A DNA stretch of 64,000 nucleotides from Obrimoposthia wandeli (lineage: Eukaryota): the NCBI GenBank assembly GCA_977020255.1, contig CDROCS010003603.1, positions 1 through 64,000 on the forward strand, given 5' to 3'. Every line of letters starts with the position of its first letter. Position 1 is the first letter of the stretch. Made by a program: the position numbers and the translations under genes. The notes below the pieces were generated by a model. The model searched no databases. It worked only from the letters and a program-made list of their open reading frames with translations, and was not told the DNA's origin. Shown piece after piece: positions 17,810 through 64,000 of this stretch.

Positions 17810-17810
17810 T

Positions 17811-18464: not shown

Positions 18465-18552
18465 TATATATAAATATTAATATAAAATAAATATATCAGA
18501 ATAAGTACATGTTTATAACAATAACAACATTTTATTAAATATTTATTAAACA

Positions 18553-19101: not shown

Positions 19102-19203
19102 TGTAAGTAAAATAATTAAATTATTGTATTTATATATTTTTTTTATTCAGTCTACAAATCAACCAATATCCAATCAGTCCAATCAAATCAATCATATCAT
19201 CAG

Positions 19204-22843: not shown

Positions 22844-22916
22844 TAAATGTGTTTAATTTTGTATTATTCTCTGACTTCTTTCTTATTTATTTTTGATTTA
22901 ATTTTTGATTTAATAC

Positions 22917-27352: not shown

Positions 27353-30300
27353 ACTCATATATTAGATATTTAAAACTATACGAATTAAATTATCTAAGCT
27401 TGATAAGAGAAATTATATGATCCACCTACTTTTAAGCCATAATTGCTTTCTGAGATTAGTTTGAATAGAGTGATAATGTAAATGATCTAGCAGTCACATG
27501 ATGAGACCCTCTAATATAGATGGGCCAATGTGATACTATGTGTCTAACTTATGATCTTTAATGACTTCAGTCAAGTTCTGATAGTCTGTAGGACCATTTG
27601 ATTTTTCAAAAGGCCACCGTTTGAGTTGAGTTATTAACTAATGCAACAAATTTAAATGTTAAAAATTATATTTTCTATTCATATCTCCAATAATAATTTA
27701 CCAACTGAATTAATATTTACATTTTGAGTTGCATGAAAATACAAATAATATAGTCCCTTTTGCGTATTATAAAGTAAAAAGATTTAGTATAGTTTGTTAT
27801 ATTTTATTTGATACATATGAATATAAAGCAACGTGTTTATTTACATTATAGTTGGAAAATTTTAATTTTAAATATGTAATTAGATATCTATAAGAAATGT
27901 TTGAATATACTTAAATGTATGAAACTTCTTGACGACCAGTAAAGATAATTTTTCAAATTTTGTTTAAACTAATATTAGAAAGATTTTTTTATTTTAGAAG
28001 TAATTCAAAAAAATAAAACATTTATTAGATATCGATCAAAAAGTAAATTTAAAAACAATATAGTTGTCAAAGGAACTGTGTTTAAATATCTTATAAATGT
28101 ATAAAAAACTTTACATTTCCCGAATTTCATTATTGAAACGATCAACGATTTCTTCTTCAACAAAAAAATGAAAATTCAAATCTCTGTTGGAAGTGACAGT
28201 CTGAAATCACGATAAAAAATAACAACTATACACGCCGATAATAAAGAATCTAAAATTCAAACAGGACGCAAACATGTGACTAATAATCGTGCTAAACGTC
28301 GAATTTTTACAATCATGACACAGAATTAGCGTATGTAGAGAATGGCTTGTTAGTTTCCTCAAAACAATTGATGGTACCATCATTTAAATCATCCGATTAA
28401 ATATTGCATCAAAAAAACTTCAATAAAACAACAGGTGTACATTGAGTTATGAACCACTGCACCAAAATATGTCATCAAATTGGATAAACATAATTTAAAC
28501 ATTTTATTCTCTTTTCAAGAGCATTGGGGATCTCTTTGATGACCGACGGTCAAAAATCTTAGTTCTGCATACGAAACTCTAAATGAAACGAATAAATATT
28601 TACAGCAATCGAAACAGTGCACATTAAAAAATGTGAATATTTTATAATATTTAATTTATCTCTATAATTTTGAATTAGGATGATACATTTGAGAAAGAAC
28701 CTTCATTGTAAATCCCAGACGCTTTGACAGCTTTAAAATAATAACTATTTGCAAAATAATGTTTATCATAACATTTATAGCAACATTTAATTATTTTATA
28801 ATCGTCAAGATAGGCAAGATATGAAAAGAACTAAAGTGTAAGTTAAAATACGAATATGCAAAGGAAACAGTTGAGAAGTGAAAACTGTCGATTATGATGA
28901 ACCAGCTAAACTGTTACCAAGATGAAGGAAGCTGTTAAAGAAGAATCACAAGTAGAAAACAGTGAGAAACTTTTATAATAGATAATGTATTCTTAAAACT
29001 TGAATAAATATTAAATTACATTTCCAGTTGTGAAAGGAAAGTAAACATTAAATAATCGATTGAGCCTTATTAAGATTTTAACAGACAATAATATTTAAGA
29101 ATATTTAAAATTTTAGCAAATGTAGCATTCTTAAAACATTTATTCACCTAATATATAGTAACCCATTACAATGAATATTTCTCTGCTTAATGAGAAACAT
29201 ACTACGAATTTGTCTAGACATATGAGTGCCATGTTTAAACATATGAACACAGGTCTTCGATTATTCGATTGTTTTAAACTTTAATTCTCAACACCACTGT
29301 ATTTGTACTTTTTGACAAGGAGAAGAATACCGGATTAAAAAGAAAAAAGTTATTCATCTGAATTATAATTTTATGTTGTCAGTTACACAGAAGAAAACAT
29401 TCAAACAGAGACAGAACGATTTTGAGAAGATAATTTTTAATTGATAGTCTGAATTAGATTACGGTTTTATTTCAGACTACTAAACATTGGTTTTCTTAGT
29501 TGACAATCTCACCCATGCTATCACTACCACTGTTTTCCCCAAAGTTTAATCAGGACAGAAAAAATCCTTTTGATAAGGTGTATTCAGATTATTTATTTAT
29601 ATTTTTTATTACTGTTAGAATTAGGAACTAAAAATAAAATAAATAATAAGAACTATTTATATTAAAAGTTCTATCCTAAAAATCAAGGTTAAAAATAAAT
29701 TTAAAATAAAATGATTTTAAAGAACCGTAATTAAATAAATTAGGACCTTGAAAGGTAACGTGGAAAAGTATTAAAAAAGGTTAAATCAATGTAAAAGGGC
29801 ATCCAAGAAATGTATTAATAAGAAGAAGAAAATTGAAAATTTGAAGAAAAATCAAGTAGCTAGACAAATACCAGCTGTTAGAAAAGTCAGAGAAAAACGC
29901 CATAAGTTGCAATTAGCAACATTCACTCGTAGTGTTGTGGGAAAAAAGAGTTATGTAAAAAACTCCATTAGTCGCAAGTGTCTCGACAGCGGAGAGAAGC
30001 CATTATTGACACCGGCCGGTTCTCACGGTGAGTTGTTATAAATAGGAATCGAAATTGATTCCCCATTTGATAACAGAATTCAAATCGACAGTATTTGACT
30101 GACGACGACCGCAAACCAAAAACATAAGCGAAGGAGTACCCAGGAAACCAGCGAATATATCGCAGACTGACTATCTCGGAGTGAATTTATCTATCTGGGG
30201 AGGAGATCTACACAGAAACTGGTGAGGAGCATAGTTAGGAGTTAGTTTCGTGTTAAGAAAGTAAATTGAATAGTTGTCAAAGAAGTATATTTTAATTGTC

Positions 30301-33244
30301 TGAAAATTATCAAAGGAGTAAAGCGTTTAATTGTGAAAATTTATATTCTAATTGTTTAAATAGTATATTCTAATTGTTTAAGAAGTATTTTAATTCTCTG
30401 AAAAGTGTCAAAGAAGTAAAGCGTTTAGTTGTTTCAAAAAAATGATAATAAATATAAGTTGTTTTAAAAAGTAACATCAACAAGTTGATCCTGTGAATAA
30501 GTCTATGAGACGTAAATCAGAATTACTAGGATAGGAGTAAAGTTAGTAAAGAGTCATCTCACTTTCCAAAGTGTTGGAATCAATAAAGTTTATTTGTAGG
30601 CGTGCTTAATCGCATAATTGTTTTAGAATTATTTAGTTGTATTCGTAAATAAATGGTTTCCTAAAAGACCACTAGTTGATATATAAGCCACCAGCCGTAT
30701 ACACGTAAACACTACTAATCTATAGGTCAGCCGAGGGACAACCACGTGACGGTTTTCTAAGCACTGTGGTATTTGAGGATTGTGTCCCAATATTACCGGT
30801 GGAATATCGTTATCGTCGCTTGGCTCCGGCTCTTTTCCATATGTTCTGTCTAGGTTGCTTGGTTTCCTTAATCTAAAAGTTTAATCCCTAAGTCTACATA
30901 ACAACACATTAGTTTATGGAGCTTACTAGCTAAATTGTGAACACACCACAACACAATAGTACAAAAAGCTTTTCAGATTTGAGATTAGAATTAAGTAAGA
31001 TTAACACAGATAGCCACATCCATCTGTAAGCCCAATCGCTACAGAACTCACTTCAGGGGCCTCCATACGAGGATCTAAGAGCTTCAATTAGAAACTCCAA
31101 TATTACTGTTACATAAATTTATTAGTATTTGATAAATGATAATTTTTCTGAAACTGCAAAAGTACGATGTGATTTTGAATTTATAAGGGAGAGTAGCGAC
31201 AGAGTAAATTTAATGAACCGATTGCTGAAATACACTTTTCCAGTTTTATGAACATCATTTTTCTACACTGGTAAAAGAAATTCAATCATACATCAACATT
31301 CAATAATTAAAAAATCGATATTTTATAAATTTGAATAAACCTGAGACAAGAAAAACTTTGATTAATTTTTAAAGGAAATAAATCCGATCAAATCAAGCAA
31401 GCGATCATGTTCAAGAATTTTGTAAATGAATAAAAATAACTTAAAGAAGCAGATTTATTTTAATACTTCCACAACCTGAAGAATGAAATAATTAGAATCA
31501 AGTACTTTGTGTTCAATTAGTTCAAGGAACGACGAGTACCATACTCCAAAAATTTCCACGTTCAACAATGTTGCTGAAAGGTTACGAAGTAGGTTACAAA
31601 AGAAAAGTAGCAAGGCCATTTGATTTGACATAAGTAATGCATTTTCCCAGTGTACACGTGACGAAGAGGAGCGGGTTATGGTAAAGAATGCAATCGTGGT
31701 TCGCTATCTTAGTGGGAATAATATGTGAAGATGTTTCATTTTAGATTGACACAGTGTTTTGGATTAATTATAAGGTTAAAAAACAACGTATGGTTCTTAT
31801 CAAGAAATGTAACATTTCACTTGTTAAAAATATTTAGCAAAAATTGTAACACACAAACCAGTCTGTAAGTATTCATGTGATTTATGATTTTGGATATAAA
31901 ATAGTACTGCATCTGGGTCTCTCAGAACCTGAACTCTACACAGGATATATTTTCCGGTGCTCAGCTGCTTTAGCTGTGAAGGAATCGTAAACAACATAAA
32001 GTGATATGAAGATACATTTCAACTGTAAAAAAGTGAAAACATTGCATTGAAGTATATGATTAACTAACGAACAGAAAATGAAAGTGATGTGGCTCATCAA
32101 AATGATTGGGATCGAGTGGGAAAATATTATCAAGTAAAAGGACTCATCATAGACCGGACAGCTTCACCAATGTGGCCACAAATAACAACAACAAAAATTC
32201 AAGTTATGGAATTTAAAGATACATTTCAAAAAGTCACAACTCATGCCAGCGTATGAAGTGACCTATTGTGGCATGAACATAAATTTAATGACGCAACAAA
32301 AAGATCCATAGCCACCCCGCCAATCTAAGGTCATGGCGTAATTACATGCACATAACAATAATGTCTGCTGACGTGTATCACAACAAGCCACTGCCTTTGC
32401 TCAACACAGGTACGGTTGAGGATTTCTTAGAAGAAACAAAAGTGCTAACACGTATGTCAATAAGTGTCACCCATTAGCGAAGTTAATGAAACAGCTTCCC
32501 AGGACTCAGTACCTGCATATTTCAACGATTCCAGTGGCTGGCAGCCATTTCATGCTGCAAGACAAGAGAAGACACGATCCGAGAAACCACATCAGCCGAC
32601 ATTGGCGGAGGCCTATAAACAAGGTTTGCCTTTGCAGTGTCGGTTGATGATGGGGACAGCGTGGATTTAGACGCAAGGATCGTGGCATTGGCATCAGAAG
32701 GATATGCTTCGTTTCCCAGTATCGCTGCATCTAGACAGCCATAGAGGAAGATAGTTGATATGACAGAGAAAACACACATCGATACATGTGTAGAAGCCCT
32801 CTTTTTCAAGAGGATTATTGAAATCGCGCGCAAAGGACCAATAGCATGTGCGTGTTACTTCATAGGTGGCCACCATGACAAACATACATGTGCCTTGTAT
32901 CACGAGAGGTTGACGGTGGGAACCGTATACATGTGTTGCGCCTTAACCGATTGCCATGTAATGAGTCATCATGTCACCGTGTGTGTTTCGCAATCGTCGG
33001 TATCTATGGTAAGCTCATATAGGTCACAAAATGTTGAAATTTGTTTTAATATTTAGAATGTGCATGAAATGTAAAATTTTAAATTTTTAGCTTACATTTG
33101 AGTAATTACTTTACAAATTTAATGTGAGAATTATCAGATTGATGGATTATTTTTTATATTCAATTTTTACACAGTAGAAATAAGAATAAAAGATAATATA
33201 TATATCAGATTTTGAATTATAATTAACAACAGTATTTATTATAA

Positions 33245-34100
33245 TAAAGGATTAATTTAAAATTCAGGAGTTGCATATCTCCCAATTTTTGATCCTTATT
33301 GTATGGGAGGGAACTGGTTGGAATATCATAATAAATTATATTTGTTTTTCTAATTGGTTAATAAGCATTCTGTTTCTCGAGCTCTATTTGATATCTAAAC
33401 AATACGGAAGGTTCAACTTATACTTTTCTAATATGTTATTTAGCCACTAGAATCTCAATCGCAGAAAGAATTGTTTATGCGCAAATCACACTATATCCAG
33501 TTAAATTTCTTTTCATTCGAAGATGGATATTAACTCCAGGTAAAATATATGTTGGCTGTTTGAAGAAAATTTAGATGGAGACTACTGCACATGAATAGTG
33601 TTTTCGATTTTTGGATCCATGATATTCTATTCATTGAATTACTATCATACCCGATAACATCTAAACTAATTGATTTCGTATCATTTCCATAATTCAATTA
33701 TGTTTTTATCACTGCTTTATAACTGATATTATTTTATTTAACTTTATTAAGTCTGAGAATCATATTTTTGAAAAAAGTCTGAAACTTGAAATTCGCTGCT
33801 TTAATATCAGCCGTTGCTTGCAAACTTATTCCAGCTTCCTTTGTAACTTTTGATTTAATAATCAATAAAGTATTATTCAAATCGAGATATTGTGAATTTG
33901 ATGCATTGATATTGAATTCCACATCGGGACTAGCTGCGTCAGTTACAGTATTTGTTGGAAATATTTCTTCAAAACAAGCACTATCCACAACTATTTCAAA
34001 AATACACAATTCAGATTTAGCACAACTCATTTCTTAAATATTGTTCCACCTAGTTTCAATCGATTGCTTATTATTTTCTTTGTAGTTTTGGTGGACATTT
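33245..34100 (-). pseudogene. Second Polinton relic: major capsid protein plus tail of the upstream small protein
   Basis: MSCAKSELCIFE..EEIFP..YLDLNNTLL..FQTFFKNMIL, then with stops LNYGNDTK..PGVNIHLRMKRN..PIRKT..NKDQ. It is preceded by ISNRLKLGGTIFKK* with an ATGA overlap, as in the intact element. Confidence 0.88.
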
Positions 34101-34984
34101 GGTGGAAATTCTTAAAAGAATGTATCTATATTTCTTCATATAAATGTTAGTTCAATTAAACTTGATTGTATTATGAATTTCCTTGAAGTATATACTAATG
34201 ACTGTGATGATGATGATTATGTCGTGTCTATTGATGAATATAATGGGTTTAAAATTCAAGAAATTAAGAAATGAGAATTATAAATTTTCCAAGAAATTAA
34301 GACGATTCCATCTAATATTACATGTCCATATATTGAACTCTGTGCATATCAAAAAATCCTTTACTACAAGTCTAGATTTTAAATACACTTTACAATTTAA
34401 ATTAATAATTAGCTATACTTAATAAAAATTATAATTTAAAAAAGTAATAAATGTTCACATTTTCATAAATACACACATGGTTATGTGTATTTTAAATCAA
34501 AACATGCTGACCTATTGCATAACGTCATTCATATAAAAAGGATGTGAATGTATTTGTTTACTCTGTCGATTTTCAATTATGAACAACGTAAATCTTATTG
34601 CATCATTTTATATTTGATTTATTTTAGTGTTATATAAACAAACCGATGTACGTCATAAGCAGTGCGAACAGAATATGAAGACAACATACGGAGTAAACAT
34701 GGACAAGCAGGAGTTCTATGTCGTGTTCTCAAAGTGAAACTGTCCATGAAGAGGAGTTGGCAGACTTCGTGAACCAGCCCAGTGAGCATCTCGCTTATTG
34801 TCAGGCTAGAGCCAACAGAGTAATCTTTTTATCCTCACCTTGCTGAATTATAGGTAGCTGAAGTATAGGAATAAAGGTATATCCAATTGCATCCTGTGTA
34901 TTTGATGCCATAAGTGTATTCACGGGTTCCGAAGACCGATAAGTTACGCCAAGCATGTTCCACTCTGTAGGATGAATTTGGAGC

Positions 34985-35895
34985 ATACAACACTCTACGG
35001 ATAAGCGTATTGAGTTTACGGTCTTTTCGAAGACGATTTCTCCTCCTTTTGCTGTTTACGCGGACTTTGAGGCTGTGCTACCATCATATGGTATTCACAA
35101 TCAGATCCAGCTCCCAACCACAGCCGGTTGCAGCAATTTCAGGATACACATAGTTACTCAGTTTTCACTGGATAATCTTTTGTTGTGTCATTTTTACAAA
35201 ACATTGGAGTTGGTGAAACACGTTGTTCTCCCATGGTATAAAATCATGCGAATGAGGTGATGCACCCACTTAAATTGGAACAGATATCAAGTTTCAATTC
35301 TGCAACAATATGTTACCTGTGTAAGAAGAGGCTAGAAAACAAGGTTTGAGACCCCGATCACGTGACCGGCGAGTACCTTGGAGCTGCGCATTCAAAATGC
35401 AACTTATCAATGAGACTGAACCGATCCTTTTCTGTGATTTTTCACTATTTGGTGGAGTACGATATGCATCACATACTCAAGTATGCATTAAGTCAATTTC
35501 CCCACTGGAGTAACTCAGTCATTCCTTAATCAACAGATTCTAAACTTTGCTGGTGCATATTGAATGAATCTGTATTTGGTTTATCAACACGTTACCGTGG
35601 TTTCGCGAAACTGGTCAAGAATCTGTGAATCAAGAAAGTGGAAATAAGACGATCAAACCGATCGAGCTTGCCGACGTTTCCCAGCATGCCACAAGGCCAT
35701 CACAGACGACGAGCTAGAGCCACTCAAGGGAGTAAAAGGTAGTTAGACATCTAAATTATTAATGACACATTATCTCAAGAAACATTATGTTGTTCATTCT
35801 AGATTGCTACAAATGTACGTTAGACTTTGTGCTAAGGTAGATTTTGTATATAGAGCAATACAGTTTGAACAAACTAATGTTTTTCTAAATAAATA
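34985..35895 (+). pseudogene. Second Polinton relic: pPolB fragments
   Basis: SKTISPPFAVYADFEAVL, CYLC..DHVTGEYLGAAHSKCNL, YDMHHILKYAL and, after a large deletion, KHYVVHSRLLQMYV..RAIQF; collinear with the in-window PolB. Confidence 0.88.
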
Positions 35896-36539: not shown

Positions 36540-37053
36540 AGTTAATTAGAAATTGTAAAATGCATAAACCTGAAAAGAAATCCTTAGTTGGATTATCGAG
36601 CGAAATGGCGAATAAAGGAGGTTCACTATATTGAACATAAAATCCAACACCAATTGCAGAACACCAACTGCAGAAGACAAGGAAATTATTCACTTATTTA
36701 TTCAGATAAAACTAGATAAACTTGTGATGACGTTGGCAATGACGATATTGTTGCATCTCAAGTTCCTGCCAAAGATGTGTACAATGCAATTGAAGTTATT
36801 GTCGATTATTTAAATTTTAAAAAGTTTCACTGAGATCTCATCCAGATCTAAGAAACCATTTGACTGAAATGAAAGAAAATATCGAAGAATTGCGTATAAA
36901 AAACATGAGACAAACTATATTGAATGATTTTGTCGAAAATAATTGAATGAATATATGCATCTATTTAATTTTCAACAAAAAACCGTAATACGAAAAAAAC
37001 GCTATCCAAAACTAATTAATTTTTGACAAGTTCGGATTATCGGGGGTTGACTG
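36540..37053 (+). mobile_element. Tigger/pogo-like relic (3' end)
   Basis: C-terminal RQTILNDF-type tail and a right terminus TTCGGATTATCGGGGGTTGACTG|TA. Confidence 0.45.
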
Positions 37054-38145
37054 TATTATAGAATGCTGTTAAACTGAGGAAACGTCTGTTAACTATAGAA
37101 AGTTCACAATTGTCGACGGTTATAGATACTTTTGATTGGCTTATGTTGGCCGTCTTTGTTTGTTAATCTAGTGTACACCCCTTGTTGAGATCTAAAAGGA
37201 ATGGTAAATGAAGTGGCTGTGGTGGAACGCGCATTATGTGATGAAGTTCGAGCACTGTTAATGGGATTGGAGACTAATGCAAGTTTATGATGCAGCTGAT
37301 CAAATGCCAGATAGGTGGTGGAGACGACGGATGTTAATTGGGAATATGTAACTTAGAAAACTTTCTTAGATATATTATATGTTGAAAGCGAAGATTTAAA
37401 TGGGATTTTTTTATTATTTAACTTATTTAAACTGAATTTATCTTTGTTAGAGAAATAAGTGAGAGAAGCAAAGTTCATCAAGAACAAAATTCATTCACTT
37501 TACAGAACATAACTGATTACTCAGTTATTTTGGAATAAAAACAAGAAAATACATCAACTTTGTATAAACTACAGATTAATTTATGAACTTCAAAAAATCC
37601 AAGTTTTAGTTATATTAAAGTTAGTTAAACTCTCAAACTTGTTAGTAACTCCAAATTTTGGCTAACCAATTTTTTATATATTAATTTATTCATATTTTTT
37701 ATAATTTTGTTATTTGATCGTTTTTCATTAAATCAAATCCGGTAAAACCCAACAAATTCTAAAGACGTTAAGTCCACCCAGGCCAGTTAATCAACTACTT
37801 CATTACTTAAAAGTGTATTTTTTGTAGAAATATTTCGTGCATTGTTATTTTCGGTCGATTTGATCTTGTTGTAGGATTGATCAAGCCCCAGAAACTTTCT
37901 TTTTAAGCTGATCAGTCTTAATGCAGTCGAGTTGGGTACATGTTGACAACTGACCCAGTTCAAGTGACAGTGTGCTGGTAGTGATTTTGTGTTTTGAGTA
38001 TGTTCAAAATTTTATTCAATGCCCAAACATATTAAAAATGTATTCCTAATTAAGTTATCAATATAATGTATATTTAAATTTTTTTTTGATTTCTACAAGA
38101 ACGATTGAATATGAGGGATTAGTCTCTAGTGAAGCATGTACTTAC

Positions 38146-38380
38146 AATGTCGTATGTTGTTGTTATCGTCGTCATCAAGCACCACAGAAGTAATTATTGG
38201 GTCGTTATGGAGATTGCTCTCCGGTGTTGACTCTAGCGAATGGGTTTCATCACTGTCGGTGTCGCGAAAAGAGGCGGTCGGATTGGAATGAGACTCTGGG
38301 AAAAATGACACCGAACAGCCAGATGACGGAGACACCAGTCGTAAAATCGTGCTGTTGTTGCACTGCAAAACAGTCGCTTT
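38146..38380 (-). CDS. Possible host exon (Ser/Asp-rich), gene unidentified
   Basis: GC-elevated open frame ending in a GTAAGT donor at 38145-38140; no recognisable domain; 5' boundary uncertain. Confidence 0.3.
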
Positions 38381-38539
38381 CATCAATATAAGTAAGTCAT
38401 TTTGAAATAAACGAATATACTATTCACATGCATTTCATTTACATTTATTTAAGTTATTTTGAAAATGTAGACAAATGTAAAATATATTTTAAACCCTCTT
38501 TAATGGTCAAAGTCGATGAAATTTTAATTGAAAAGTTTT

Positions 38540-38660
38540 GTAAAATATATTGGTTGCGTACGTGACTTAAATCTGTGTATAGTTGCACAAATGAACAAAA
38601 CAGTAAAGGCATGCAATTATGAACTGAAGAAAATATTTAAAATAAGAAAAAACTTGAAAG
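38540..38660 (+). mobile_element. Non-LTR (CR1/L2-clade-like) RT C-terminal fragment
   Basis: VRDLNL..QMNKTVKACNYELKKIFKIRKNL resembles 'VRDLG..H..K..K.CYY.LR.I.KIR..L'. Confidence 0.55.
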
Positions 38661-40869
38661 GTTACTGGTGCCAAGGGAGTGGTGAGCGGATATTTTCGTT
38701 TGAGAAGACAGAGATCGTCTCTGGAGACCCGAGCTGGCACCGGCGCGGGATACAGGTACTGGTGAGAGTGATGTCCAATTTCCATGGTCTGGGGAACCGG
38801 TAGATCCCGGCGCCTGGAGATGATTGCTGGTGATGGCGAGACCATATGTACCTGGCTAGCACTACGGCATCTGAACATAGAGTGCACAGTTACGGCACTG
38901 GGGTAGCTATTCCAAATTGACCTGTCAGTTTCATAATAAGCGATAAAGTAGTGAAAATATATTTTTATCGATATATGTTGCCGGTAATTTTTGAAATAAG
39001 ACAATTCCTGAATGTCCAAAAATAATCTAATATTTTTTTAAAATTGGTTAACTCATATTCTAAATATTTGATGTATCTGTTCATTAAAAATTTAAAAGTT
39101 AATTTTCAAATTGCAAAAAGAATTAATACATCTTACTGACAACAGTAAACAGTTGATACGCATATAATTATTAGGTTGATTTTACTAGGTTTAATTTGTC
39201 AGACTACGATTATCAATATTTATTCTCAATTGGAAATTTTACCAATTAAAAAAACTTTTTTAAAATTTTGATGCTTTGTCAACTTAACAACACACTAGTA
39301 AAATTAATCAATAATTGTTTGTAATTTGACTTTTATTATTTTATTTTTGAATATAATTGTGCCTTACATGTCAGTGTTTATTCACAAGTTTTAAATCTAT
39401 GTTATGTGTTTTCTAGAAATTTTTTATAAGGTTAGATGATTAATATTATATTCTAATTTAATTATTCATTGTTCAACATGTAATAACGTTAATCACTTTA
39501 TTTTATTTGGGTTTATTATTTAAAATCTTCATAAATGTTGAAGTGTACTTTACGAAATGAAAAATAATACATATTAGTTTCAGCTGTTTTATAGGATAAA
39601 AAAATTCAACGTATATTTCCAAGATAATAAAAATTACACTTTACTCTCATTCACCCTTGTATTCTCAGTTTTGTATTGATAAAAAAATTAATTTTATACT
39701 TCTGATGAAAACCGGTACCAAAAAAACAATTTACAACTAAAATTTATTTACCAATATATTTTTAAACATGTTTAATTTTTTTCAAAAAGTCACCGATATT
39801 AGTCGGTTTCATTTTAGATTCAAAACAGAAAAAAACATATTTGGAAAGGGTTGAAAATGCTTGAATTTTGTGTGTATAGTGTTTTGTTGGACTTCACAAA
39901 AACAGAAAGAGGGTTTCCAAATGTTTCTTATCAGCTGAAGTTGTTATAATGAGTTCTAACATTGTTTGCATCTCCCTGATCGATTAAATGTGCTTCGATA
40001 ACATTATTTTCCAAAACATTACTAAATATATAAACTGTCAACTGCGATGTAAATCAACACCAAAAAACAAAATAAGTCTTATTGGAATTGTAGTTTAAAT
40101 AAATTTCATAATCAATAATTTTAAAATTTTAATCGATTTTTTAAATGCCTTTTTAATAGAGCCTAGCTACAAAATTTTAGCGAAATAATTATTTTTGTAG
40201 GCATCACAATGAAAATGTGCATTTGAAATTAATTGAGGGATGGCAGGAAACAAAACAGAATTATAACGATTTTTACATTGTGATTCATTTGTTTGTTCAA
40301 AATGTTGGGCAAAAACTCAGCTTGGCGTTATAACAAGAGTAAAGTATATATTTATAATATTGATTGGTACATAGATATTTGGAAATTATAAAATTCATTT
40401 TCTAGTAAACCAATAAAAAAAATCAATGAAATGAAAAGACACGCTATTGATACTTAAATTTTGTAAAAAGCTTATAATTAGAAATTTTCTCCGCCAAAAT
40501 ATTTTTTAAAAATTTTAATTAGCATCTTTCGTAGTTTTCGTAGAAAAATATTTTTTGAAATTAACTTTACTTTTTAAATGATACCATACCAAAGACCAAA
40601 ATATAACAGAAACATATCAGTTTCTTAACCTGGCCATTTTAAGTTACCCTAAATTCGATCTTGTAAACCTTGGACTCATTTATAATCCAGACAGAAAAAT
40701 ACAAAATTCTGAAATTAAAATGTTACAATAGATAAGCCAGTCTCATGGAAAAGCCAACTCAAATTTAAAAAAGTATATCCGATTCTTAATTATTCGTAAG
40801 TTTTTTTACAATATAAAGTTTTTAAATTTGATTATATTTAAAATTAAGCATACACAGGCTCGAAAATCG

Positions 40870-42489: not shown

Positions 42490-43340
42490 ATGTCGAACAA
42501 ACGAACAAACTGTACGCTCAAAGAGAAATATCAAATCGTTTTTCAAAAACTGACATTTCCAAACAGAAAAACATTACACTGACTACGCTCTTGGTTTATT
42601 GTAAAAAAACAGTTGAAATAATTAATGCATATGAAAAGGGAATAAAAATGTCCAATACTAAAATAATCAAAGTGTACAATTTCGAGGAAGTTGATACACC
42701 ATAGCTGGATTTCTTTTCTTTGGCCTGTGACAAGACACTTGTTTCCAGTGAAATGCTCTAGGAAAACGTTGACTATATTGACTGGATATCAACTGGGTGG
42801 ATCGATGGAAAAAGCGCAATGATGTCGTAGAATCGCGTTGGTAATAGATAATTGTATGGCGCTTTCAGAACTAAGTCTATCTTTTCCATCTGCTTGTCTT
42901 TACAGAAACAACTATCAAGAACTGCTTTAAAAAGGTGGGTTTGATCAAGGATGAGTGTGAACAAACTAATGAGTCAATGGACGATGACGTCTAAATGATA
43001 GCCCAAGGTAACACTATCTGGGAGACTGGCTGCTGTGTGAACTCTTGCTTACATGAAGTTCAATGACTTCGTCGAACAATATGTAGATATGGCTATCAGA
43101 GACTGTCTTACCTACAAAATTAAGCCTTCAACCTACAGCTATGACAGATGATGACAAACCCGCTGTTTCTCCCCAACCAATATTTAGAGGAGTTATTACA
43201 ACAGAGAAGCAACTGAAACGTTTTCTGCAATCTATTGACAGTAAGAGAACTATGCTTGGTAAGTTGGATTCGGTTAAGATCTTGATACATTACGTATCAT
43301 CAGACAGAAAGAGTCAAAGCTCAATTCTCTAATACTTTGA
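42490..43340 (+). mobile_element. Tigger-like transposase relic (internally deleted)
   Basis: KRTNCTLKEKYQIV, FEEVD, LVIDNC, TTIKNCFKKVG and a C-terminal SQSSIL*YF. Confidence 0.6.
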
Positions 43341-48209: not shown

Positions 48210-50250
48210 CAGTAATACCCCGAATAGTGAGGTTCCAAACAGTGCATATTTCACTATAGTGTGGATTTTGTAAAATATTAGTAAATAAATAAAATAAAAC
48301 TATATTTAATCCTTTAAAAATATCAATATTGATTTCAAGATCTATATTTAATATTCTTAAAACTCACATTTTAGAAATGATTCTTTCATCTGATATTTTC
48401 CGAGTCAATATTGCAGAATACTATTATTAAAACAGGTTGTATTGAAATGTCAAGTCAAACAAAAGGAAGCACAGACAATGTTGGTCCAAACAAACAACAG
48501 TGGTTAACATTAGAAAATAAACTAGATGTTATAAAGTGTCATGAAAATGGTGCATCATTGGCTAAAATTCCACGCGATTATAAAATAAATGAGTGATATG
48601 TGTGTGCCATTGTAAAGAAGAAACAACAATATAAAGACCATGGAATTGCTACTGCATCGTATATGTCAAAAAGAATTGCAAAAAAGATAGACAAAAACAT
48701 GTTGAATAGGGAGCGACTTTTATTAATGTAGATTGAAGATATTGTAATGAAAAAAAAAATTCCACTCAGTCAACTTATTATTCAAGAAAAAACACGAAGA
48801 TTTTATAGCGCAGTTACCACTCAAAATGAAAATGAAGGGGAGACCTCTACGACTACAAATGAAGAAACAAATGCAGAAAAATCTTTTAATGTGAGCCGCG
48901 GTTGGTTCAATCGCTTTAAAGAACGTACAAAGATTCATAATGTTAGAATTGTTGGTGAAAGTGCTGATGTAGAAACAGCCACAAAATATCCTGATGAATT
49001 TAAAAATATTAATGAAGATGGTAATTACATTGATCATCAAATATTTAATGTGGATGAAACAGAATTGTTTTGGAAGAAAATACCTACTCGAACATATTAA
49101 GCTGAAAAATAAGAAGCACAACCAGGGTATAAAATTACAAAAGATCGTCTGACTCTTTTGTTAGGTGGCAATGCGTCTGGTGAATTTAAATTTAAGTATA
49201 TGCTTGTTTACTGGGCAAACAATCCAAGAGCTTTAAAAGACTATGCCAAAAATACTCTCCCCGTATTTCGGCGATCGAATAGAAAGGCGTGGGTTACAAG
49301 ATTTATTTGAATACTGGTTCACAAATTATTTTTGTTCCCGCAACTGAACGATATTGCAAAGAAAATGATATTGCATTTAATATTATTTTGTTATTACATA
49401 ACGCACCAGGACATCCACCTGCACTTAGTGATTTAAATAACAATGTTAAAATTGTATTTTTACCACAGGACACAACTTCGTTATTACAGTATTATGTACC
49501 AAGGAGTGATCGCAACATTCAATGAGACAAGCTTTTTCTCAAGCAATTAAAGTTACGACAGAAGAAAATGTCATTTCATTAACTGATTTTTAGAAGAACT
49601 ATAATATCAGAATTCCAGTTGAAAATATTGATTTAGCATGGCGTGAAGTTACTGTTAGCAACATTAGAGCTGCATGGGAAAAGCTTTTGCTTCACTGCAC
49701 AAATGATTTTGGTGATTTTGAACCTCAAGTTCAAACAGTTGTATAAAATATTGTTCAGATCGGGAAAGAGCTTGGATTTAATAATGTAGACAATGCTAAT
49801 GTGCGTGAATGCATCGATTCTCATTCTGGTGAGCTCGATAACGAAACTCTCGTAGAAATTGATCAGCAACGAGCATATGAAGAAGAGGAAGAAAAAGCAT
49901 CAAATGACGATCTAGTTAAAATTAAAGAATTTAGCATTGCTGACATGGACACATTATTTTCACTTTATGATGAACGGAGCATCCAAGTGCGAAACACTGT
50001 TGAAAAAAGTATTCGATGCTACAGAGAACTTTATGCCACAAAAACGAAGAAGAAATCAGTGCAAACTTCTTTGATTAAATATTTTTAGAAACAATAAAAA
50101 CATTTCAGTATTATTTTTGTTTCAATAAATATTTAATTATAATCTTGTATCATTATCTCTGTTAATGCTCGTTTTTAATGCATTTAATAACTTTTAATTA
50201 TTTTATCGTATGTACGTATCGATATTTATTCAGTTTGGAACGAATTAAGC
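48210..50250 (+). mobile_element. Tigger/pogo (CENP-B HTH plus DDE_1) transposon, near full-length, pseudogenised
   Basis: Left end TA|CAGTAATACCCCG. Transposase 48447-50088 has LTLENKLDVI (psq HTH), SRGWFNRFKER, QIFNVDETELFWK, LLLHNAPGHP, FLPQDTTSLLQ and QTSLIKYF, with multiple stops. The right TIR was not found. Confidence 0.9.
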
Positions 50251-51182
50251 CCATTATATAATGCATTAAACAGTGCAAACATAGGAAAAATTCGTTTATA
50301 TAATTACAAAGTTATTGTTGAAGGAATAATAGAAGCTAAACTATAACTAAAATACATTTTTATTACATTTCGGCAACAGTTTTAGATTTTAATTTGTTTT
50401 ACGTTATGTAGAATAGATTAATACAAAAAATCTTTGATTACATTAAAACCAGATTCATTATGAATGCAAAACATACTATCATTTAAACATTTTGAGATAC
50501 TGGATTAAATTTGAGTTTCAAAAATTTTATTGAAAGTTGAGAAACATTTTTTTAATTGAGACTTTTTAGTATTCATTAAAATAATTCAAAATCGATAAAA
50601 AAAAAGATAGTCATTTTCTACAACTCTTCTTTCCAACTACATCTTTCCATCAACTAGGAAGATCCATCCTGTCTTCGCAAAACTGCTTAATTGGTTCTCA
50701 ATTTTCTAATTGAACTTCACCAAATATTATATTTTTCTGTCACTTTATGCGTACTTTTATCGTATTTGAGATGGTTCAGAGCTGGTAGTTAAAGATATTT
50801 AATTTTTGTCGTTTTAACTCCAATGCATTATTGAACAGCAACTAAACGAGGATAACCAATAATTCAAGTTGATTTGTATTACTACACTAATAATATACAA
50901 AGATAACAAAAATATATTTAATATAGTACACATATCTAATAAATGCATGATTTATTTCTGAAAAGCGTTTTCATCTTTTCTCGAATTCTTGGAAATACAG
51001 TGTTGGCAACAAATATCGAATAAAGGTGAATTGTTTCTAATAATATATTTCATGTAATTTACACTTGAAATTTTTTATAATATTTATACCTGGCAATAAA
51101 GGTGGATTAATATTTTTATGTTAAAATTTTTATTTCACTAGATATTTTCTTCTACTTATTTATTAATCAACAGATATATTAC

Positions 51183-51460
51183 GAAAACGGTCAAATATAC
51201 TACTCAGACGTTAATGGTATGGGCTGCAATAAAAGGCGATGGAACAGCAACCATAAACAAATGCCCACATAGGTTAATTTCACAGAGATACAGAAACGTT
51301 TTGGAAGGGCTCTTCAATAATACTCCATAGTTATGCAGGATGGCGCTAAATGCCATACACCTAAAAAAAACTATATATGATTTCTTGAAAATAACAATGT
51401 TATGATCTTAGTTGACCTGAATATAGAGAATCTGTGGGCCATATTTAAGAAGAAAGTAAG
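51183..51460 (+). mobile_element. Tc1-family transposase relic
   Basis: KTVKY..LMVWAAI, MQDGAKCHT and DLNIENLWAIFKKKV. Confidence 0.75.
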
Positions 51461-54853: not shown

Positions 54854-57485
54854 CTTGAAACAAAATTAATATTTTACATTTTATTACGTACTTGATAAAT
54901 ACAGATTTTAATTTTATAGATTTATTCATAAATTGATTAACAATAGGATGACTAGTAAAAACTTCACGTAAAAACTTCACATTTTATTAATTTCTCAATA
55001 CGAGAAGGTACAAAGGAGACAAATTATTTTACGGCTACATTTAATTTGACATTTAGATTTTAAATTAAATAATTTTAATTTGTTTTGTATAACCTAACAA
55101 GTTTATTTTTAAACTAATATTCATGTGCTTAATTTAATTATAATATTATTGGAAAAAATTTAACCATTTAATATTATACAAGGAAAATGTAGATATCCAA
55201 ATTTGCCAAAAAAGTGGGTTTATAATTTAGTTTTTTAACAACATTTGATTTTAATACACTGGGTGATGTTGTGACAGCCATTAATATGGTATCTTTGTTT
55301 CTATAAAGATATACTAAAAGGAAATTTGGTAAATACTTTTATTTTATATACGTTATATATAATAATTAATTTAGTTGAAAAACCATATCCAAAGTACTTA
55401 TTTTTTTTTATTTATGAAACAAGTTGATAAAACTGTTATAATTAGTTTTGACTTCACAGCTCATTAGAAATTATCAAATATCATCAGTATAAAATATGAC
55501 TTTTAATTTAATATTCAATTTCTACGATCATTTTAAAACTATATCTAAAAGGTAAAAGTATAATAATAAACAGAATAACTCAAACAGCAACAGATAATGA
55601 CAAGTATTAGCAAACATAAATTTCTAAAATCGAAAAAAGTAATTAATATTTATAAATATTATTTTTATATCGTAAAAGAAATAATTTCAAAAAAATAGCA
55701 TAAAACTTTTAGTTTCTTTCATTTATGAATAAAATAGTAATTTTTATTTAAAATAAAATTTAAATAGAAGAGTGATGGTAAAATTGAAACAAATATCAGA
55801 GTTTTTACGATAATTTTTGATTTTAATTTTTCCAGTGAATCAAAAATAATATTGTAATTAAATAGCCAGCCATAGAAACAAGAGCACTTTCTTATGCAGA
55901 AACAGACTCCAGAAGACAAGTCCTGTTAATAAACTCAAAATTTCTGGGCTAAGTATACTGATCTAAAAACTGTTATTGAAACAGTAATTATGTTAACATC
56001 ATGATGCAAAACGATCAATCGTTCGACTGACGACTATTTCATAAATAGAAACCAGAGGTTAGCAATATTTGATCAAATTTTAATTTTGTCATTTCAATGA
56101 TTTTTACTCTTTTATCATATGAAATTACATATATTTCTTAAAATTATATATTAATATTTACAACAAAAAATTTAAATGTAAAATTTTAAAAGTAATCTAT
56201 AATTACAATGTGGTTTTAAGAAATTAAAAATTCATTTAAAGTTGCTACAATAATGCAACAAAAAATAAGATTACTAAATGATATTAAAATATTTTTTTCT
56301 TTCAAATACAACAAATTGTAAAAGTTGATAAAATAAACAACCAAAAATTACACTGAAATATATACATTGATTACTCAAAATCTACAGATATATTATCGTG
56401 GTTATAAACAAAGCTTGTTTGAATTATTTAGAAAACCCTTAAAATAACTGGGTAAGCCAATAAAGCTTATTAATTTTGATTTAGAAAAAAATCAGACAGA
56501 TAATGCGGGTTAATGTGTACATTCAAACTCTACACTACATATGAAGTAAATGATTTTCAATTAAGGAAAATACAGTTCAGTAATTTTTCTCGATAAAGAA
56601 CTGTAGTTAAAAACTTTCCTTTAATATATCACTAAAAATATTCAGATGAATTAACGGGTTCATTCTTAAAATACATGCTTCTTAAAATAGAGCACTCACC
56701 AGTTCACATAACTGAGTTTAATATTACTTTGTTTTAACAAGAAAGTGTTTGTTAATCATTTACAAGTTTTGTATTGTTAATATTTTGTGTGAATACCTGT
56801 GTTCTTAAATAGACATTGTGATCAAAGCTTATGTGTTGTTAAATTTTTATTTTATTTTTTTAATATAGAAATAATGACTACAAATTATACTAATTGTTTA
56901 CAGTAAACACTTTCAGACAAAATTTTTATTATAAAACTTAAGAACAAAAATTCAAAAAATTTTACCCTTTAAGCATGAAACGAAATTGGCAGGGAATTTG
57001 GAATATCTTACAAAATATCGTTTTTCAGTTAGAAAATATACGTTAGAAATTTTGAAATATTTGGGTGAAAAGGATTAGTAAAGTTTGAAGACTAGAGGCA
57101 TCAATTTATTTTAAAATTTTATCTGTGAATAAAAACCACAGATACAAATAAAACTTCTATCATCAAAATAAGTGAAATAATCAATATTTAACAAAAAGAA
57201 AATATTTATAAGATATCACTTTCACAATTTATAACTATTAAATATTTGTATAAAAACTAGGAAAATTTTAAATCAAAGATCACATTATTTTTTTAATATT
57301 TTGTCATTAAATAATCAAAATTTCAAACAAAAGTGAATTTAAAAAAAATATTTTCTACAATTGTGCAACTAGATTATACTTCTAAATAAGTATAATAAGA
57401 CTAAAGTTAATAATGTTGGGGTTTTTGTAATAAATTGATGTATCTTTAATAAAAACAAAACAGAGAGTAAAGTCCTAATGGATCA

Positions 57486-57537
57486 ACTCCCGACCGGCTT
57501 ATCACCAGTTTCACCTTACCAGGTTCGTCGAGGGAGT
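57486..57537 (-). ncRNA. Degenerate type I hammerhead ribozyme (copy A)
   Basis: Minus strand ACUCCC-UCGACGA-ACC(UGGUAA)GGU-GAAA-CUGG(UGAUAAG)CCGG-UC-GGGAGU. All three stems pair, but the core reads UCGACGA instead of CUGANGA. Confidence 0.65.
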
Positions 57538-58087
57538 GGCGAGTGTTATTTCTGACTTGCAGGTAGTTGAAACCCGCAAAGACGGAGATAACAAGTGAAA
57601 AAATAACATGTTTCGTGAGGGAGAGTCGATCACAGATTGATTAGACCACGGAGGGCCAACTTTATCTGCTATCGAAGCAGATATAATCTTTTCATTGATC
57701 TGTCCTACATCTCAGCCACCATTGCCCTTTTCATCCATCTATGGCATATCAACATATGTCACTGTCAAATAGGAATAACCGCAGTATCTACTCATATCGC
57801 GATGCGTCACTTATCTCTCCCTGATAATATCTTCCGCGATATTTCCTTTCTCCAGTGTTGCTTTCATGTCTCCTCATGCATGTCTCCACTGCCTTGTCTT
57901 TCACTGTGCCAACTCACACATTTGGACAGTAGTCTCCCTGTCAGTTCTCTTTCTCACACATTTTCTCTCATCTACCGTTTGTGTTTAAAAGTAGTGTTGG
58001 GTTTAGAATTTAATAAATTAGTCAATTTAAATTGACATTTAAAAAATTAATCTAAAGTGCCCACAATTAGGGATAAATTCCATTTTA

Positions 58088-58140
58088 GCCTCCGACGGTG
58101 TAAAAACCCCGTTTCGCCCTGCCAGGCTCATCAGGGAGGC
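58088..58140 (-). ncRNA. Type I hammerhead ribozyme (copy B)
   Basis: Minus strand GCCUCC-CUGAUGA-GCC(UGGCAG)GGC-GAAA-CGG(GGUUUUUACA)CCG-UC-GGAGGC: canonical core, GUC cleavage triplet, perfect 6-bp stem I. Confidence 0.92.
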
Positions 58141-58312
58141 GGCAGAAAAAAATGCATAAAAGAGAAAAGATAAGGAAGTACCTTTAGTTGGAAATTACCG
58201 CCCAGTAGCGGCGGTCTATCTTCTCAGCCTTCCTCCATCATCATCCGGAGAAGGCATCAGTTTCATCATCGTCATCATCATCATCAACATCATCATCAAC
58301 ATCATCATCCGG

Positions 58313-58605
58313 NNNNNNNNNNNNNNNNNNNNNNNNNNNNNNNNNNNNNNNNNNNNNNNNNNNNNNNNNNNNNNNNNNNNNNNNNNNNNNNNNNNNNNNN
58401 NNNNNNNNNNNNNNNNNNNNNNNNNNNNNNNNNNNNNNNNNNNNNNNNNNNNNNNNNNNNNNNNNNNNNNNNNNNNNNNNNNNNNNNNNNNNNNNNNNNN
58501 NNNNNNNNNNNNNNNNNNNNNNNNNNNNNNNNNNNNNNNNNNNNNNNNNNNNNNNNNNNNNNNNNNNNNNNNNNNNNNNNNNNNNNNNNNNNNNNNNNNN
58601 NNNNN
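58313..58605. other. Assembly gap (293 N), preceded by a (CAT)n microsatellite
   Basis: Run of N. Confidence 1.
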
Positions 58606-59101
58606 TATTTCCCCTATCAGCGGTAACAACGGCTATGCGCTGTCAGTGCGCCTCATGCATGCCCAAATCATTCAGTGCCAGACACATGAACTACCTCTCG
58701 TTATCTCACGTGCGCACCATCTCAACTACAGCAGTGGCTGTAGTGACAGCAGCATCAATCGATCGTATGATGTTGACCTACCTCCATGTAACTATCTCAC
58801 TGTGGATTTTTATGTTGCCGTTTTACAATCCCTGCCTCACTTCGGCCACTGCCATTACTTTTTGTTTTGCATTTCGGCGAATGTGTATGTGTGCACGCTT
58901 TACACCACAGCCTCTCTCCCTCTGCTACACATTTAAATTTGATTTTGGTCGATGTGATCGAAAATATATAAAGTAAGTGTCTCCTGATCTGGACACTACT
59001 AAAATGATTACTTCAAATATATTCATGCAACAAGTTGAAAACAATACATACGGTCAAATATTAATATAATAATTTTAAAAAATTTAGAATCAATTAACTT
59101 G

Positions 59102-59224
59102 TTATTTCAACCAAATTTGGAATCAACTCTATTATTTCAACCAATTTGGAATCAACTCTATTATTTCAACAAATTGGGAATCAACTCTATTATTTCAACC
59201 AAATTTGGAATCAACTCTATTATA
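59102..59224 (+). repeat. 29-30-bp tandem repeat, 4 copies
   Basis: Unit TTATTTCAACCAAATTTGGAATCAACTCTA with an internal palindrome CCAAATTTGG. Confidence 0.9.
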
Positions 59225-60455: not shown

Positions 60456-60706
60456 TCAAATAAAATAGACGTAAGTAGTTTCTGTTATATTTTATTTTGA
60501 CAAAATCCCAATTGAATTGTTATATAATAGATTGATCTTGAGATTCAAATAAAATAGACGTAAGCAGTTTCAAATCAGTAGTTTCTGTTATATTTTATTT
60601 TGACAAAAATCTCAATTGAATTGTTATATAATAGATTGATCTTGAGATTCAAATAAAATAGACGTAAGCAGTTTCAAATCAGTAGTTTCTGTTATATTTT
60701 ATTTTG
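60456..60706 (+). repeat. Local tandem duplication (89/103-bp period, ~2.6 copies)
   Basis: TTCAAATAAAATAGACGTAAG recurs near 60456, 60545 and 60648. Confidence 0.85.
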
Positions 60707-61530
60707 TGTTAAATTAAATCAGCTTATTTTTTTGTGTGAGGTCAATATTGCATTTTGCTATTTAAAGCAATATCACATGCAAACACACACACTAATAAGA
60801 AAATGTTGAGAGAGAATCAATGATTATACTATTGGACCTGAAATCCACTGATACGACACACACAGACACACTGAACCCGCTGATGTAGCAACTGCTGTAG
60901 AGACTATAAACACTCCCATGCAGGGGAATTGACTGCATATGTTGACCAGCCTGAAAGTCACGCACCCGCCACTGTGAATGTTACTGGAAATCAGGCCAAT
61001 GAGATAAGTACAAAAATGCAGTTAGGAGTAAAAACATTGCCATCCCGATACACGATTCCATCACAAGAGCAACATCGAGTTAGATCAAAGAGCCATGCCC
61101 ACACATATGAGAGGGAAAGGGAGACGGATGCAGCAGAAAGAGAGAGAGCATAATGAGAAGTTAGGTGATTGGCACGAGAGTGAGAGAGACTGACCATCAT
61201 CAGTGTGGAAACTGCATGTCGGGGAAACCGTCAAGATAAGGGAGAAGGATCCGGCAGCACGAACAGAGTGAAGTGTGAATGACCACTCATTTGATCTAGC
61301 CAACATCGGGTGGCTGATTGTCGCTATTCTGCTTTCCCGGAGAGAACACCGACTGTCTGGGTGCAGTTGCATAGTTGCACTATCACCTCCCCCTGTTCAA
61401 TCGAGATTGCATCAGAGGAAGATTGCGCTGTTGGTCAGGTTGCGGTTCCTCCATCAAAGTCTGCGGTATCCGCCGCTAGAGAGGAACTGGGCGGAAAATT
61501 CTGCCATAAATCTATTTTTATCTATATGCC

Positions 61531-61582
61531 GCCTTCCTGACGAGCCCGGCAGGGCGAAACGGGCTAATAACCCGTCGGAGGC
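61531..61582 (+). ncRNA. Type I hammerhead ribozyme (copy C)
   Basis: GCCUUC-CUGACGA-GCC(CGGCAG)GGC-GAAA-CGGG(CUAAUAA)CCCG-UC-GGAGGC: canonical core with GUC site at 61574-61576. Confidence 0.92.
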
Positions 61583-64000
61583 TAAATTTGAAAAAACCTC
61601 CCTAATTGTGGGCATTTTAGATTATTTTTAGTAAATGTCAATTTAAATTGACTTTAAAATTAATTAATTTTTATTAATTACCCAACAGAAGCATATTAAC
61701 TTTATTGATTAGTGCAGATCACTGCGAGCGTCGTAGCATTACTAAGTCACGCAAATCAGATTACTGACTACATCTGAAAAACATAAGTTTTTATTTTTAA
61801 ATTTACTTAACGATATTTTTACATTACTTAAAGTTGATAAAGGAACTCAGAACAGAACTGAACATGTTGATGTCTAAAGAGGTACAGTTAAATTAAAATA
61901 AATATGGTTATATTTATAGTCCTTACCAAAAATCTGTAATGGATTTTAAATTAAAATTAAGAAATAATATTATTACAAATGGTAGTTTAATTAAGTCAAT
62001 TAACCTGAGATTATATCTAAAGCATGTATAAAAGAGTTACATGAAACAATTACGAAATAGTTGGTAGTTGTAGGGAAATAAAATTGAGGCAGTGAATTAT
62101 AGTGAATAATTATTCAATTATAATCAGAATTGTAAGGTTGTAGAAAAAACCAGTCGTTTAGCAACGTGTACAATTAGAGGACGAGGTTATGGCACCAAAG
62201 TGATATCAACAACTAAACCGATACATTTCATTTCAACTTTGTTCACTTATCTGAGTTAAATTTTATTAAGAAATATTTACTTTAACATTGTATAAGATTA
62301 TTATCTTCGGTAAAATTAAAGCCTTTTTTCTATTGATTCTACTTAATTTACTAAATCACAAAGTTACCTTTCATGTTCAATTGTTTAAAAACATTAAAAA
62401 AAATACATAAAAAGAAGATATTCAAAATTTAAAATACAAAAATTATTTAAAAACTAAAGTTGAATAAAACATATATATATTTATTAGTTTAACCTTAAAT
62501 AGATTTTTTTTTCGATGACCTTGAGATATTTCGTTTTTTTGACACCAATTAGCAAAGACGTTTATTCAAAATTGTAACATTTTGAAAACATTAAAATAGT
62601 ATTTAACCTATATAACATCCCTAATTGGATAACTTTATAAAGAATATAATTTGAAATAATGTATATCTAAAACAATTTTTTATCATTTATTCAATTCAGA
62701 GTTGATTAGAAAATAATAAAAATATGTTGCATGCCAATAAAATATTTTAAACTTTAAAAACAAATTTAATAGAATTGATAGATAACATATCTCACTTCTG
62801 AACTTGGCCTTATTACATTTTAATAATATTTGTATCAACAATTCTAATTTGTCAAAAATTAAATTGATACCAGAATCTTACAGAAGACGCCGAAAATAAA
62901 ACAATAAGTTTATATATATAATGTCAATATTCCTATTGTTTCTAATGTGTTATATTTTATTTTCATTTTTTAATTGCAAAACTTTAAATAAGCAACATTA
63001 TAGTAATTTAGTCCTAAAATTTGCGTATCTATTATATTATTTTTAACTATTTATTGTTTAAATATTCAAAAAACTTTGTAGTGTGCAAAAAATCACATGA
63101 CCATTTTTGTAATTTGAATGATATTCATTCTAATGTTTTTTGTCCAGAAATTCATTTGTTTTATCAAAACTTAATTTTGAAATATTTTACTTTTAGTACA
63201 GGAATATATTAGATGTAAGTTTATTTTTACGTAAATAAAGTTTATTTTCATTTCAGATTAATTTTCAAAATTGCACGATTCTCGGGTTAATTTAAATAAT
63301 ACAAAATTAATTTGTTAAATAAAATGAACCAAAGCTTATATTTGTATTTATAAAAAAGTACGTTATAGGTCTTTTCAAAAAGTAAGCAACAAATAAACTG
63401 CAAGATTCAAAGAAAATTGTACTTTAACAATACTTTACATAAATTTATTTAAATTTCTTTTGAAAATTAAATATATAACTATTGCCTATGAACTATGCTT
63501 ATATAATAATTTTACAATAAGTTAAAAATAAATTTTTATCAAAATTTGAGTTAATTAATAATAATTTTTAACTAAAATATTCTCATAATGTTTGTATTTT
63601 GTAAACTTTAGAAATTTTAACCTATATTAATTCAACTGTACAAAAATACAAAAGACTAAAACTTTAACATGTAAAAGTTATTCCATTATATCGAATGTTT
63701 AATTTAGATAAAAAATGAATAAACCTAAAAATTCGTGGTGGTCAAATATTATAAGATGGTGATGTTGAAAATTGTATTACAATAGAAATCAACCCCATAT
63801 AACTCAGTAAAACAACATATAAATATAAAAACTGCAACCGATAACCCATTACTCCTTATATGAACGAAATCTTGGATATGATAAAAGTAGAAACACATAA
63901 CAAACACATAATAATTCATATATTTAATACATTTATTTGAATTGGCCAAATTTTTTATATTTCACCATTCATTATTGCAATGAATTCTTCCAGATTTACT

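Follow-up and report, generated by a model that had tools for sequence, protein, structure and literature searches.

On balance, and with modest confidence, we interpret three hammerhead ribozyme motifs in the window (the whole stretch of 64,000 nucleotides analysed here) as the ends of a cluster of separate, non-coding units of the Penelope-like/retrozyme kind, which would be passengers copied in trans. An earlier note on this DNA had proposed a non-autonomous ribozyme retroelement of this kind, and this is still the best explanation, with two of the motifs (B and C) repeated and non-coding. It is built on one window and two cassette loci, and a 293-nt assembly gap hides part of the sequence. 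The three motifs are the following.

58088-58144, minus strand: hammerhead B, type I, canonical core CUGAUGA/GAAA/GUC, stems of 6/4/4+ bp, cut after 58094.
57486-57541, minus strand: hammerhead A, type I fold, variant core UCGACGA, stems of 6/4/6 bp, all paired, putative cut after 57492.
61527-61582, plus strand: hammerhead C, canonical core CUGACGA, stems of 6/4/5 bp, cut after 61576, of the family of B.

The two minus-strand type I hammerheads with GUC sites at 58094 and 57492 were already described in the earlier note, and both the sequence and a descriptor scan of the two strands agree with it (C17 of B at 58094, C17 of A at 57492; residues are numbered by the conventional scheme). The 602-nt spacing of the cuts and the two cores, canonical CUGAUGA in B and UCGACGA in A, are likewise as it had given them. 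Hammerhead C, on the plus strand, is additional to this pair and came from the descriptor scan. B and C have the core CUGANGA, GAAA, NUH and three helices with an open stem I, and are thus type I hammerheads. A has the helices, but carries U3 and C4 within the conserved core C3 U4 G5 A6 N7 G8 A9. Loop II is GGCA in B, where U1.7 is unpaired and the 5' flank UGCC is complementary to loop II. In A, loop II is GGUA, U1.7 is kept and positions 10.1-11.1 form an A-U pair. Folded in isolation, A and B each adopt the three-way junction, with mean stem pair probabilities of 0.75-0.97 and unremarkable folding z-scores (-0.36 and -0.69), and the fold of C competes with alternatives (stem probabilities 0.16-0.67). 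The ribozymes of A and B are identical at 34 of 57 columns, and their stems differ in a compensatory manner.

The three hammerheads are real and stand above chance. With descriptor thresholds chosen with the motifs in view, which makes the nulls somewhat generous, the canonical core with stems of at least 6/4/4 bp occurs twice in the window and in none of 200 block-wise dinucleotide shuffles. When up to two core mismatches are allowed, the window holds three motifs and no shuffle more than one (11 of 200), and shuffling of the A region (57400-58080) gave a relaxed match in 0 of 3000 cases.

A check against the Rfam Hammerhead_1 model, suggested in the earlier note, gave no match at the gathering score. 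Scans of 91 nt with RF00163 matched B (22.7 bits, E 8e-4) and C (25.1 bits, E 1e-4), both below the gathering score of 34 bits, but not A. An Rfam search of the whole window gave no hammerhead match at gathering scores, and one of a 1-kb segment gave no hammerhead at E<=10; the snoRNA matches in the latter arise from a (GAT)n run and were rejected. A covariance model made from all three motifs, run with filters off, found no fourth copy in the window. The sole extra match of nhmmer with the B and C cassette in the window was the ribozyme of A (E 0.007). In bacterial and archaeal genomes, a degenerate ribozyme pattern covering both cores and the tail motif each had 0 matches, and phage records gave no match.

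B and C share a terminal cassette, to which the tail of A can be compared.

57995-58214, minus strand: terminal cassette of B, 220 nt, homologous to 61470-61687.
61470-61687, plus strand: terminal cassette of C, 218 nt, in inverted orientation to that of B, with the 5' ends facing.
57414-57485, minus strand: tail of A, ending at CCCAACA (57420-57414).

Over 148 nt the cassettes share 82% identity (E 1e-34), and their cuts are 3482 nt apart. Homology begins some 70 nt before the ribozyme, at a CCGCC/GGCGG hairpin (0 of 2000 shuffles as good), and terminates at CCCAACA, 99 nt past the cut of B and 111 nt past that of C. The order in B is the hairpin (58214-58198), a pyrimidine tract, the hammerhead, an AU-rich stem-loop tail and the CCCAACA end. 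Outside these approximately 220 nt the sequences of B and C are unrelated, and after CCCAACA cassette C adjoins sequence different from that after B. The hammerhead-bearing 3' end recurs on different copies in two of the three units. Directly upstream of the ribozymes of B (58145-58262, minus strand) and C (61440-61530, plus strand) folding beats shuffles, and the z-scores (-2.76 and -3.46) point to a structured element within the cassette. The cassette words had no match in the searched literature, and five of them had 0 matches in the supplement of PMC8557442.

CCCAACA occurs only five times in the window and starts 71, 92 and 104 nt after the three cuts. In B and C it closes a predicted hairpin with UGUGGG, and the 11-mer following it is present only after A and C. 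That insertions end at this AC-rich stem-loop is suggested by the end of B-C homology at CCCAACA; the folding z-scores of the tail hairpins are weak (-1.54, -0.84 and -0.39). Shared motifs hint at homology of the A tail to the B and C tails, but the alignments are not significant: 223 and 135 of 2000 shuffles do as well, and in an anchored test 830 and 1010 of 2000 do. The end of unit A is therefore only suggested.

Upstream of the cassettes lie the bodies of units B and C and the gap.

58606-58960, minus strand: presumed 5' body of unit B, GC 47%, non-coding, 5' edge approximate.
60790-61469, plus strand: body of unit C, GC about 47%, non-coding, unrelated to the other bodies, 5' edge approximate.
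58313-58605, no strand: assembly gap of 293 N, inside the presumed body of unit B and just upstream of B.
58263-58309, minus strand: (GAT)n microsatellite that adjoins the gap and lies upstream of cassette B.

The segments upstream of all three ribozymes have 42-49% GC compared with a background mean of 29%, and 42% or more is reached in 35 of 1173 background windows of 400 nt. Their alignments with each other are not significant (A-C 99, B-C 119 and A-B 11 of 500 shuffles as good). None of the 28 stop-to-stop frames of at least 35 aa in the three GC-raised segments had a Pfam match at cut-offs (two weak ones, E 0.04 and 0.08). A common 5' motif of bodies A and C, matched by 1 of 1000 shuffles in hand-picked 100-nt windows and by 99 of 500 for whole bodies, was rejected as post hoc. 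A search for target-site duplications gave no convincing case. The (GAT)n run (58241-58312, minus strand) would translate as an acidic C-terminus if the gap held an ORF, and in the same stretch the word CCGGATGATGATG lies at the gap edge and is repeated 60 nt downstream. Units B and C are separated by an AT-rich spacer with small tandem repeats at 59102-59223 (29 bp, 4 copies) and 60474-60706 (104 bp, 2.3 copies).

The window as a whole, with 29% GC, is rich in other repeats, and no host gene was seen in it. Positions 1-10900 are a satellite array of 563-bp and ~231-bp units, many copies of which are 99-100% identical; the descriptor scan and the covariance model found no hammerhead there. A Polinton/Maverick-like element at 11687-23768 has long terminal inverted repeats beginning AGTAG and the following genes.

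16436-17272, minus strand: Polinton-like integrase.
17811-18476, minus strand: Polinton-like A32-type ATPase.
18553-19146, minus strand: TATA-binding-protein-like ORF (PF00352, E 1.8e-11).
19120-22782, plus strand: polymerase-like ORF of 1220 aa with an endonuclease VII match.

The TATA-binding-protein-like ORF has 17 relatives with 41-54% identity on short contigs, and the adintovirus paper PMC8502044 mentions such a gene in the legend of a figure. Degenerate pieces of a second Polinton-like copy, 67-75% identical to parts of the first, lie at 33344-35823. DNA-transposon relics include a broken Tigger/pogo-type transposase at 48381-50088 on the plus strand, with CENP-B_N, HTH_Tnp_Tc5 and DDE_1 in separate frames. 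The short plus-strand frame 51142-51450 we take, by its look, to be a Tc1/mariner transposase relic; a Rieske match at 51142-51327 was judged spurious, as the frame resembles such a relic. Further GC-raised non-coding patches (29831-30303, 32139-33074, 37032-39013 and 42663-43230) gave neither a hammerhead nor a Pfam match.

Between the cuts of A and B lies the piece to which the earlier note had drawn attention.

57492-58093, minus strand: 602-nt piece, composed of the B tail (99 nt, 58093-57995), the body of unit A (453 nt, 57994-57542) and 50 nt of hammerhead A.

The note's description of this piece as GC-raised and non-coding stands, with 41% GC compared with 29% in the window and no Pfam match at cut-offs. 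Its further reading, that A and B are tandem copies bounding a 602-nt retrozyme monomer which is released by double cleavage, circularised and reinserted, was not borne out, and we consider it improbable. The two motifs do share a strand, and their 602-nt spacing is within the 51-972-bp range given for animal retrozymes in part of the preprint 10.64898/2026.07.22.740005. The piece is non-coding, it has less than 50% GC, as passages of PMC7229834 describe for retrozymes, and type I hammerheads flank it. A predicted circle reaches -151.9 kcal/mol, only slightly above shuffles in stability (z -1.85; equalled by 4 of 60), and were A cleaving at all, read-through transcripts would yield a piece with ligatable ends.

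Non-LTR retrozymes, however, are tandem repeats with a hammerhead in each unit, as described in sections of PMC7229834 and of the same preprint, and here the flanks of the two ribozymes are unrelated. In the 602-nt register, ungapped identity amounts to 0.23 on the upstream side of the ribozymes and 0.34 on the downstream side, blastn between the A and B flanks gave no match, and no tandem repeat was called at A/B, with the 293-N gap upstream of B as a caveat. B-C homology stops 99 nt past the B cut, i.e. inside the proposed 602-nt unit. The circle is not highly self-paired either (paired fraction 0.61 compared with 0.60 in shuffles), and its junction, which joins the 5' strand of A to the 3' strand of B, is predicted not to refold as a hammerhead. 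To this come the probable weakness of A as a ribozyme, whose stem I is predicted to be open (0.00-0.04) with at least 50 nt of flank, and the mutagenesis of the CUGA turn discussed below. As a B tail is joined to the body of another unit, the piece would not be a tandem-repeat monomer; judged by its sequence, it is the junction of two units and not a replicating monomer.

A junction of this kind could also lie within a larger whole. B and A might form one composite element (about 57414-58960) with two ribozymes in series that is mobile as a whole, similar to Terminons, which parts of the review PMC6431247 describe as head-to-tail arrays with several hammerheads. GC-raised DNA runs continuously from the B tail into the A body, without a host-like spacer, and the A body aligns weakly with the segment past the gap (11 of 500 shuffles as good). 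Against this, the homologue of the B cassette in C is followed by different sequence after CCCAACA, so the cassette occurs without the A body. There are no ORFs, and no runs of telomeric repeats beside the ribozymes; a single CCCTAA is present in each of B and C, and ten in the window. We therefore regard a composite element as unlikely.

Least probable of all, in our judgement, is that the units represent hammerhead-bearing SINEs of the RNA polymerase III type, like the satellite/SINE elements of Schistosoma. In unit A, one 9-mer at 57631 resembles a B-box, and a loose A-box precedes it by 40 nt. Units B and C have no B-box, however, and the window contains 19 B-box matches. A T6 run at 57603 would stop polymerase III before A, T runs also precede B and C, and there is no tRNA-like gene. 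Internal A and B boxes without a terminator before the ribozyme were thus not found together, and a polymerase III promoter in the units was rejected.

The variant core of A deserves closer attention, as A retains every helix and tertiary-contact position despite the swap. Six pairs change on both sides across A, B and C (0 of 500 shuffles, from three sequences only), and five of the six involve A, in stems I and II. These two-sided changes indicate that selection has kept the helices of A. In each of the three motifs U1.7 stays unpaired, and the last base of the stem II tetraloop (loop II A4) is an A; according to part of PMC11875169, a contact between U1.7 and a loop II A is proposed to speed cleavage. 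The GCC beside stem I, also common to the three, could pair with loop II in 11 of 12 cells, as a candidate contact with no two-sided change; sections of PMC3088659 describe loop II pseudoknots of such a sort as common in hammerheads.

The swap itself argues for low activity. In a type III hammerhead, passages of PMC9901934 report that all single and double mutants of the CUGA turn had low activity except for the C3G/G8C swap. U4C alone considerably lowers activity in vitro, yet it is tolerated by a viroid (in part of PMC3088659). The natural covariation at positions 3 and 8 that appears in sections of PMC4209133 is U3-A8, and the variants that sections of PMC3088659 name do not include U3/C4 with G8. 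A limited literature search found no report of a hammerhead with a UCGA core. A is thus predicted to cleave poorly. Based on the CUGA-turn mutagenesis and on the opening of stem I in context, the A copy is probably crippled, or the assembly slipped at the end of a C-run and so produced UCGA. CpG decay as the origin of the core changes was not supported (CpG observed/expected of 0.81 in the window).

The second option shades into a broader one, namely that A is canonical in the living genome or family and that UCGA reflects an assembly error or a private two-base change, in which a C moved past a U. None of the 16 pairs in A is broken, and A retains U1.7, loop II A4 and the GCC flank. The swap lies at the end of the C-run with the assembly gap 0.8 kb away, and a CT/TC swap is also found between the arms of the Polinton-like element (1 of 27 differences). 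Pulling the other way, A and B differ at 23 of 57 columns, as a separate lineage that may have a core of its own, and the satellite shows few swaps (one among 104 distinct differences). A canonical A is possible, though we lean against it; it is compatible with the best explanation and, if true, would reopen the release of the 602-nt piece. Much more speculative, and very improbable in our view, is that A belongs to a family of hammerheads whose core is naturally swapped (a U3.G8 wobble plus C4) and which are nonetheless active, rescued by the contact between U1.7 and loop II and by the pseudoknot. In a modular system, interchangeable ribozyme cassettes would capture unrelated bodies of 0.5-0.8 kb and free them as circular RNAs that are chimeric and have a silenced ribozyme, of which the 602-nt piece would be one. 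If the UCGA core were active with natural tertiary contacts, the hammerhead consensus would extend.

The explanation we prefer, a cluster of non-autonomous units, would work as follows. Non-coding units of roughly 0.6-1 kb would each carry a hammerhead at the 3' end and be laid out as a GC-raised body, the ribozyme and a 70-110-nt AU-rich stem-loop tail with an AC-rich end motif, which would match the layout of a Penelope-like element end (pseudo-LTR). The units would be transcribed and then trimmed by the ribozyme, when functional. A Penelope-type reverse transcriptase/endonuclease would copy them in trans, starting in the AC-rich tail, with the endonuclease nicking AT-rich DNA or an earlier copy. 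Unit B would lie directly upstream of unit A, head to tail, with unit C inverted 3.5 kb away. B and C would form one cassette family, expected to cleave as monomers, and A would belong to a divergent family, as a local copy with a damaged or mis-assembled core.

We infer cleavage, transcription, mobilisation and a Penelope partner from this arrangement. The search for such a partner, suggested in the earlier note for elsewhere in the genome, was negative within the window, as no frame (93 + 50 frames, window frames of at least 35-62 aa outside the gap) had a Pfam match to a reverse transcriptase or GIY-YIG. An autonomous Penelope-like element, with an ORF for a telomerase-like reverse transcriptase and GIY-YIG, was accordingly absent from the window among frames of at least 35-62 aa, and it is by their layout that the units are linked to Penelope-like elements (PLEs).

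That layout has close counterparts. For the Poseidon element PAc, part of PMC11167929 places the start of reverse transcription in an AC-rich stem-loop (ORF positions 111-118) and the cut at 26, which by subtraction puts the start 85-92 nt past the cut. PLE copies tend to insert side by side (in a section of PMC6765202), and they form tandem and inverted 5'-truncated arrangements (in passages of PMC8557442); B-A and B-C are laid out in these two ways. Non-autonomous PLE derivatives have a common 3' end, as described in parts of PMC8557442 and of the preprint 10.64898/2026.07.22.740005. Metazoan PLE hammerheads are usually minimal and without helix III, according to sections of PMC4209133. Helix III of A, B and C has 4-6 bp, which is nearer to retrozyme motifs or to those of fungal and protist PLEs.

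Compared with known systems, the motifs resemble the RF00163 and pseudoknot-type hammerheads described in parts of PMC3088659 in their core, 6-bp stem I, 4-bp stem II and possible loop II pairing. They differ from RF00163 in that B and C score below gathering and in that the long helix III found here is outside the model. The chains of several head-to-tail hammerheads in Terminons/Athena, the EN-minus PLEs covered in part of the review PMC6431247, are another likeness. Unlike in these elements, we did not meet reverse-complement telomeric repeats after the hammerhead, or reverse transcriptase and accessory ORFs. With the metazoan non-LTR retrozymes of Cervera and de la Pena 2020 (in sections of PMC7229834), the units have in common non-coding sequence, GC below 50% and a canonical type I hammerhead whose helix III is stable, and no LTR, PBS or PPT was seen in them, as in retrozymes. 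Those passages describe retrozymes as one 150-450-bp unit repeated in tandem, whereas the units here are unrelated outside the ribozyme and one has a variant core. The likeness to PLE pseudo-LTR ends, as far as these are described in parts of PMC4209133, PMC8557442 and PMC11167929, lies in a type I hammerhead near the 3' end with a predicted AC-rich stem-loop about 70-110 nt past the cut. It extends to the tandem and inverted arrangement, the adjoining microsatellite and the AT-rich surroundings. In contrast to the PLE pseudo-LTRs in these sources, there is no reverse transcriptase/GIY-YIG ORF in the window, and the hammerheads are full-size instead of minimal and dimer-type. Animal genomes hold many repeats with hammerheads, and the units would be one further family among them. 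Monomer-type, full-size ribozymes in a Penelope-like end geometry on unrelated bodies may represent an intermediate on the way from pseudo-LTR to tandem retrozyme.
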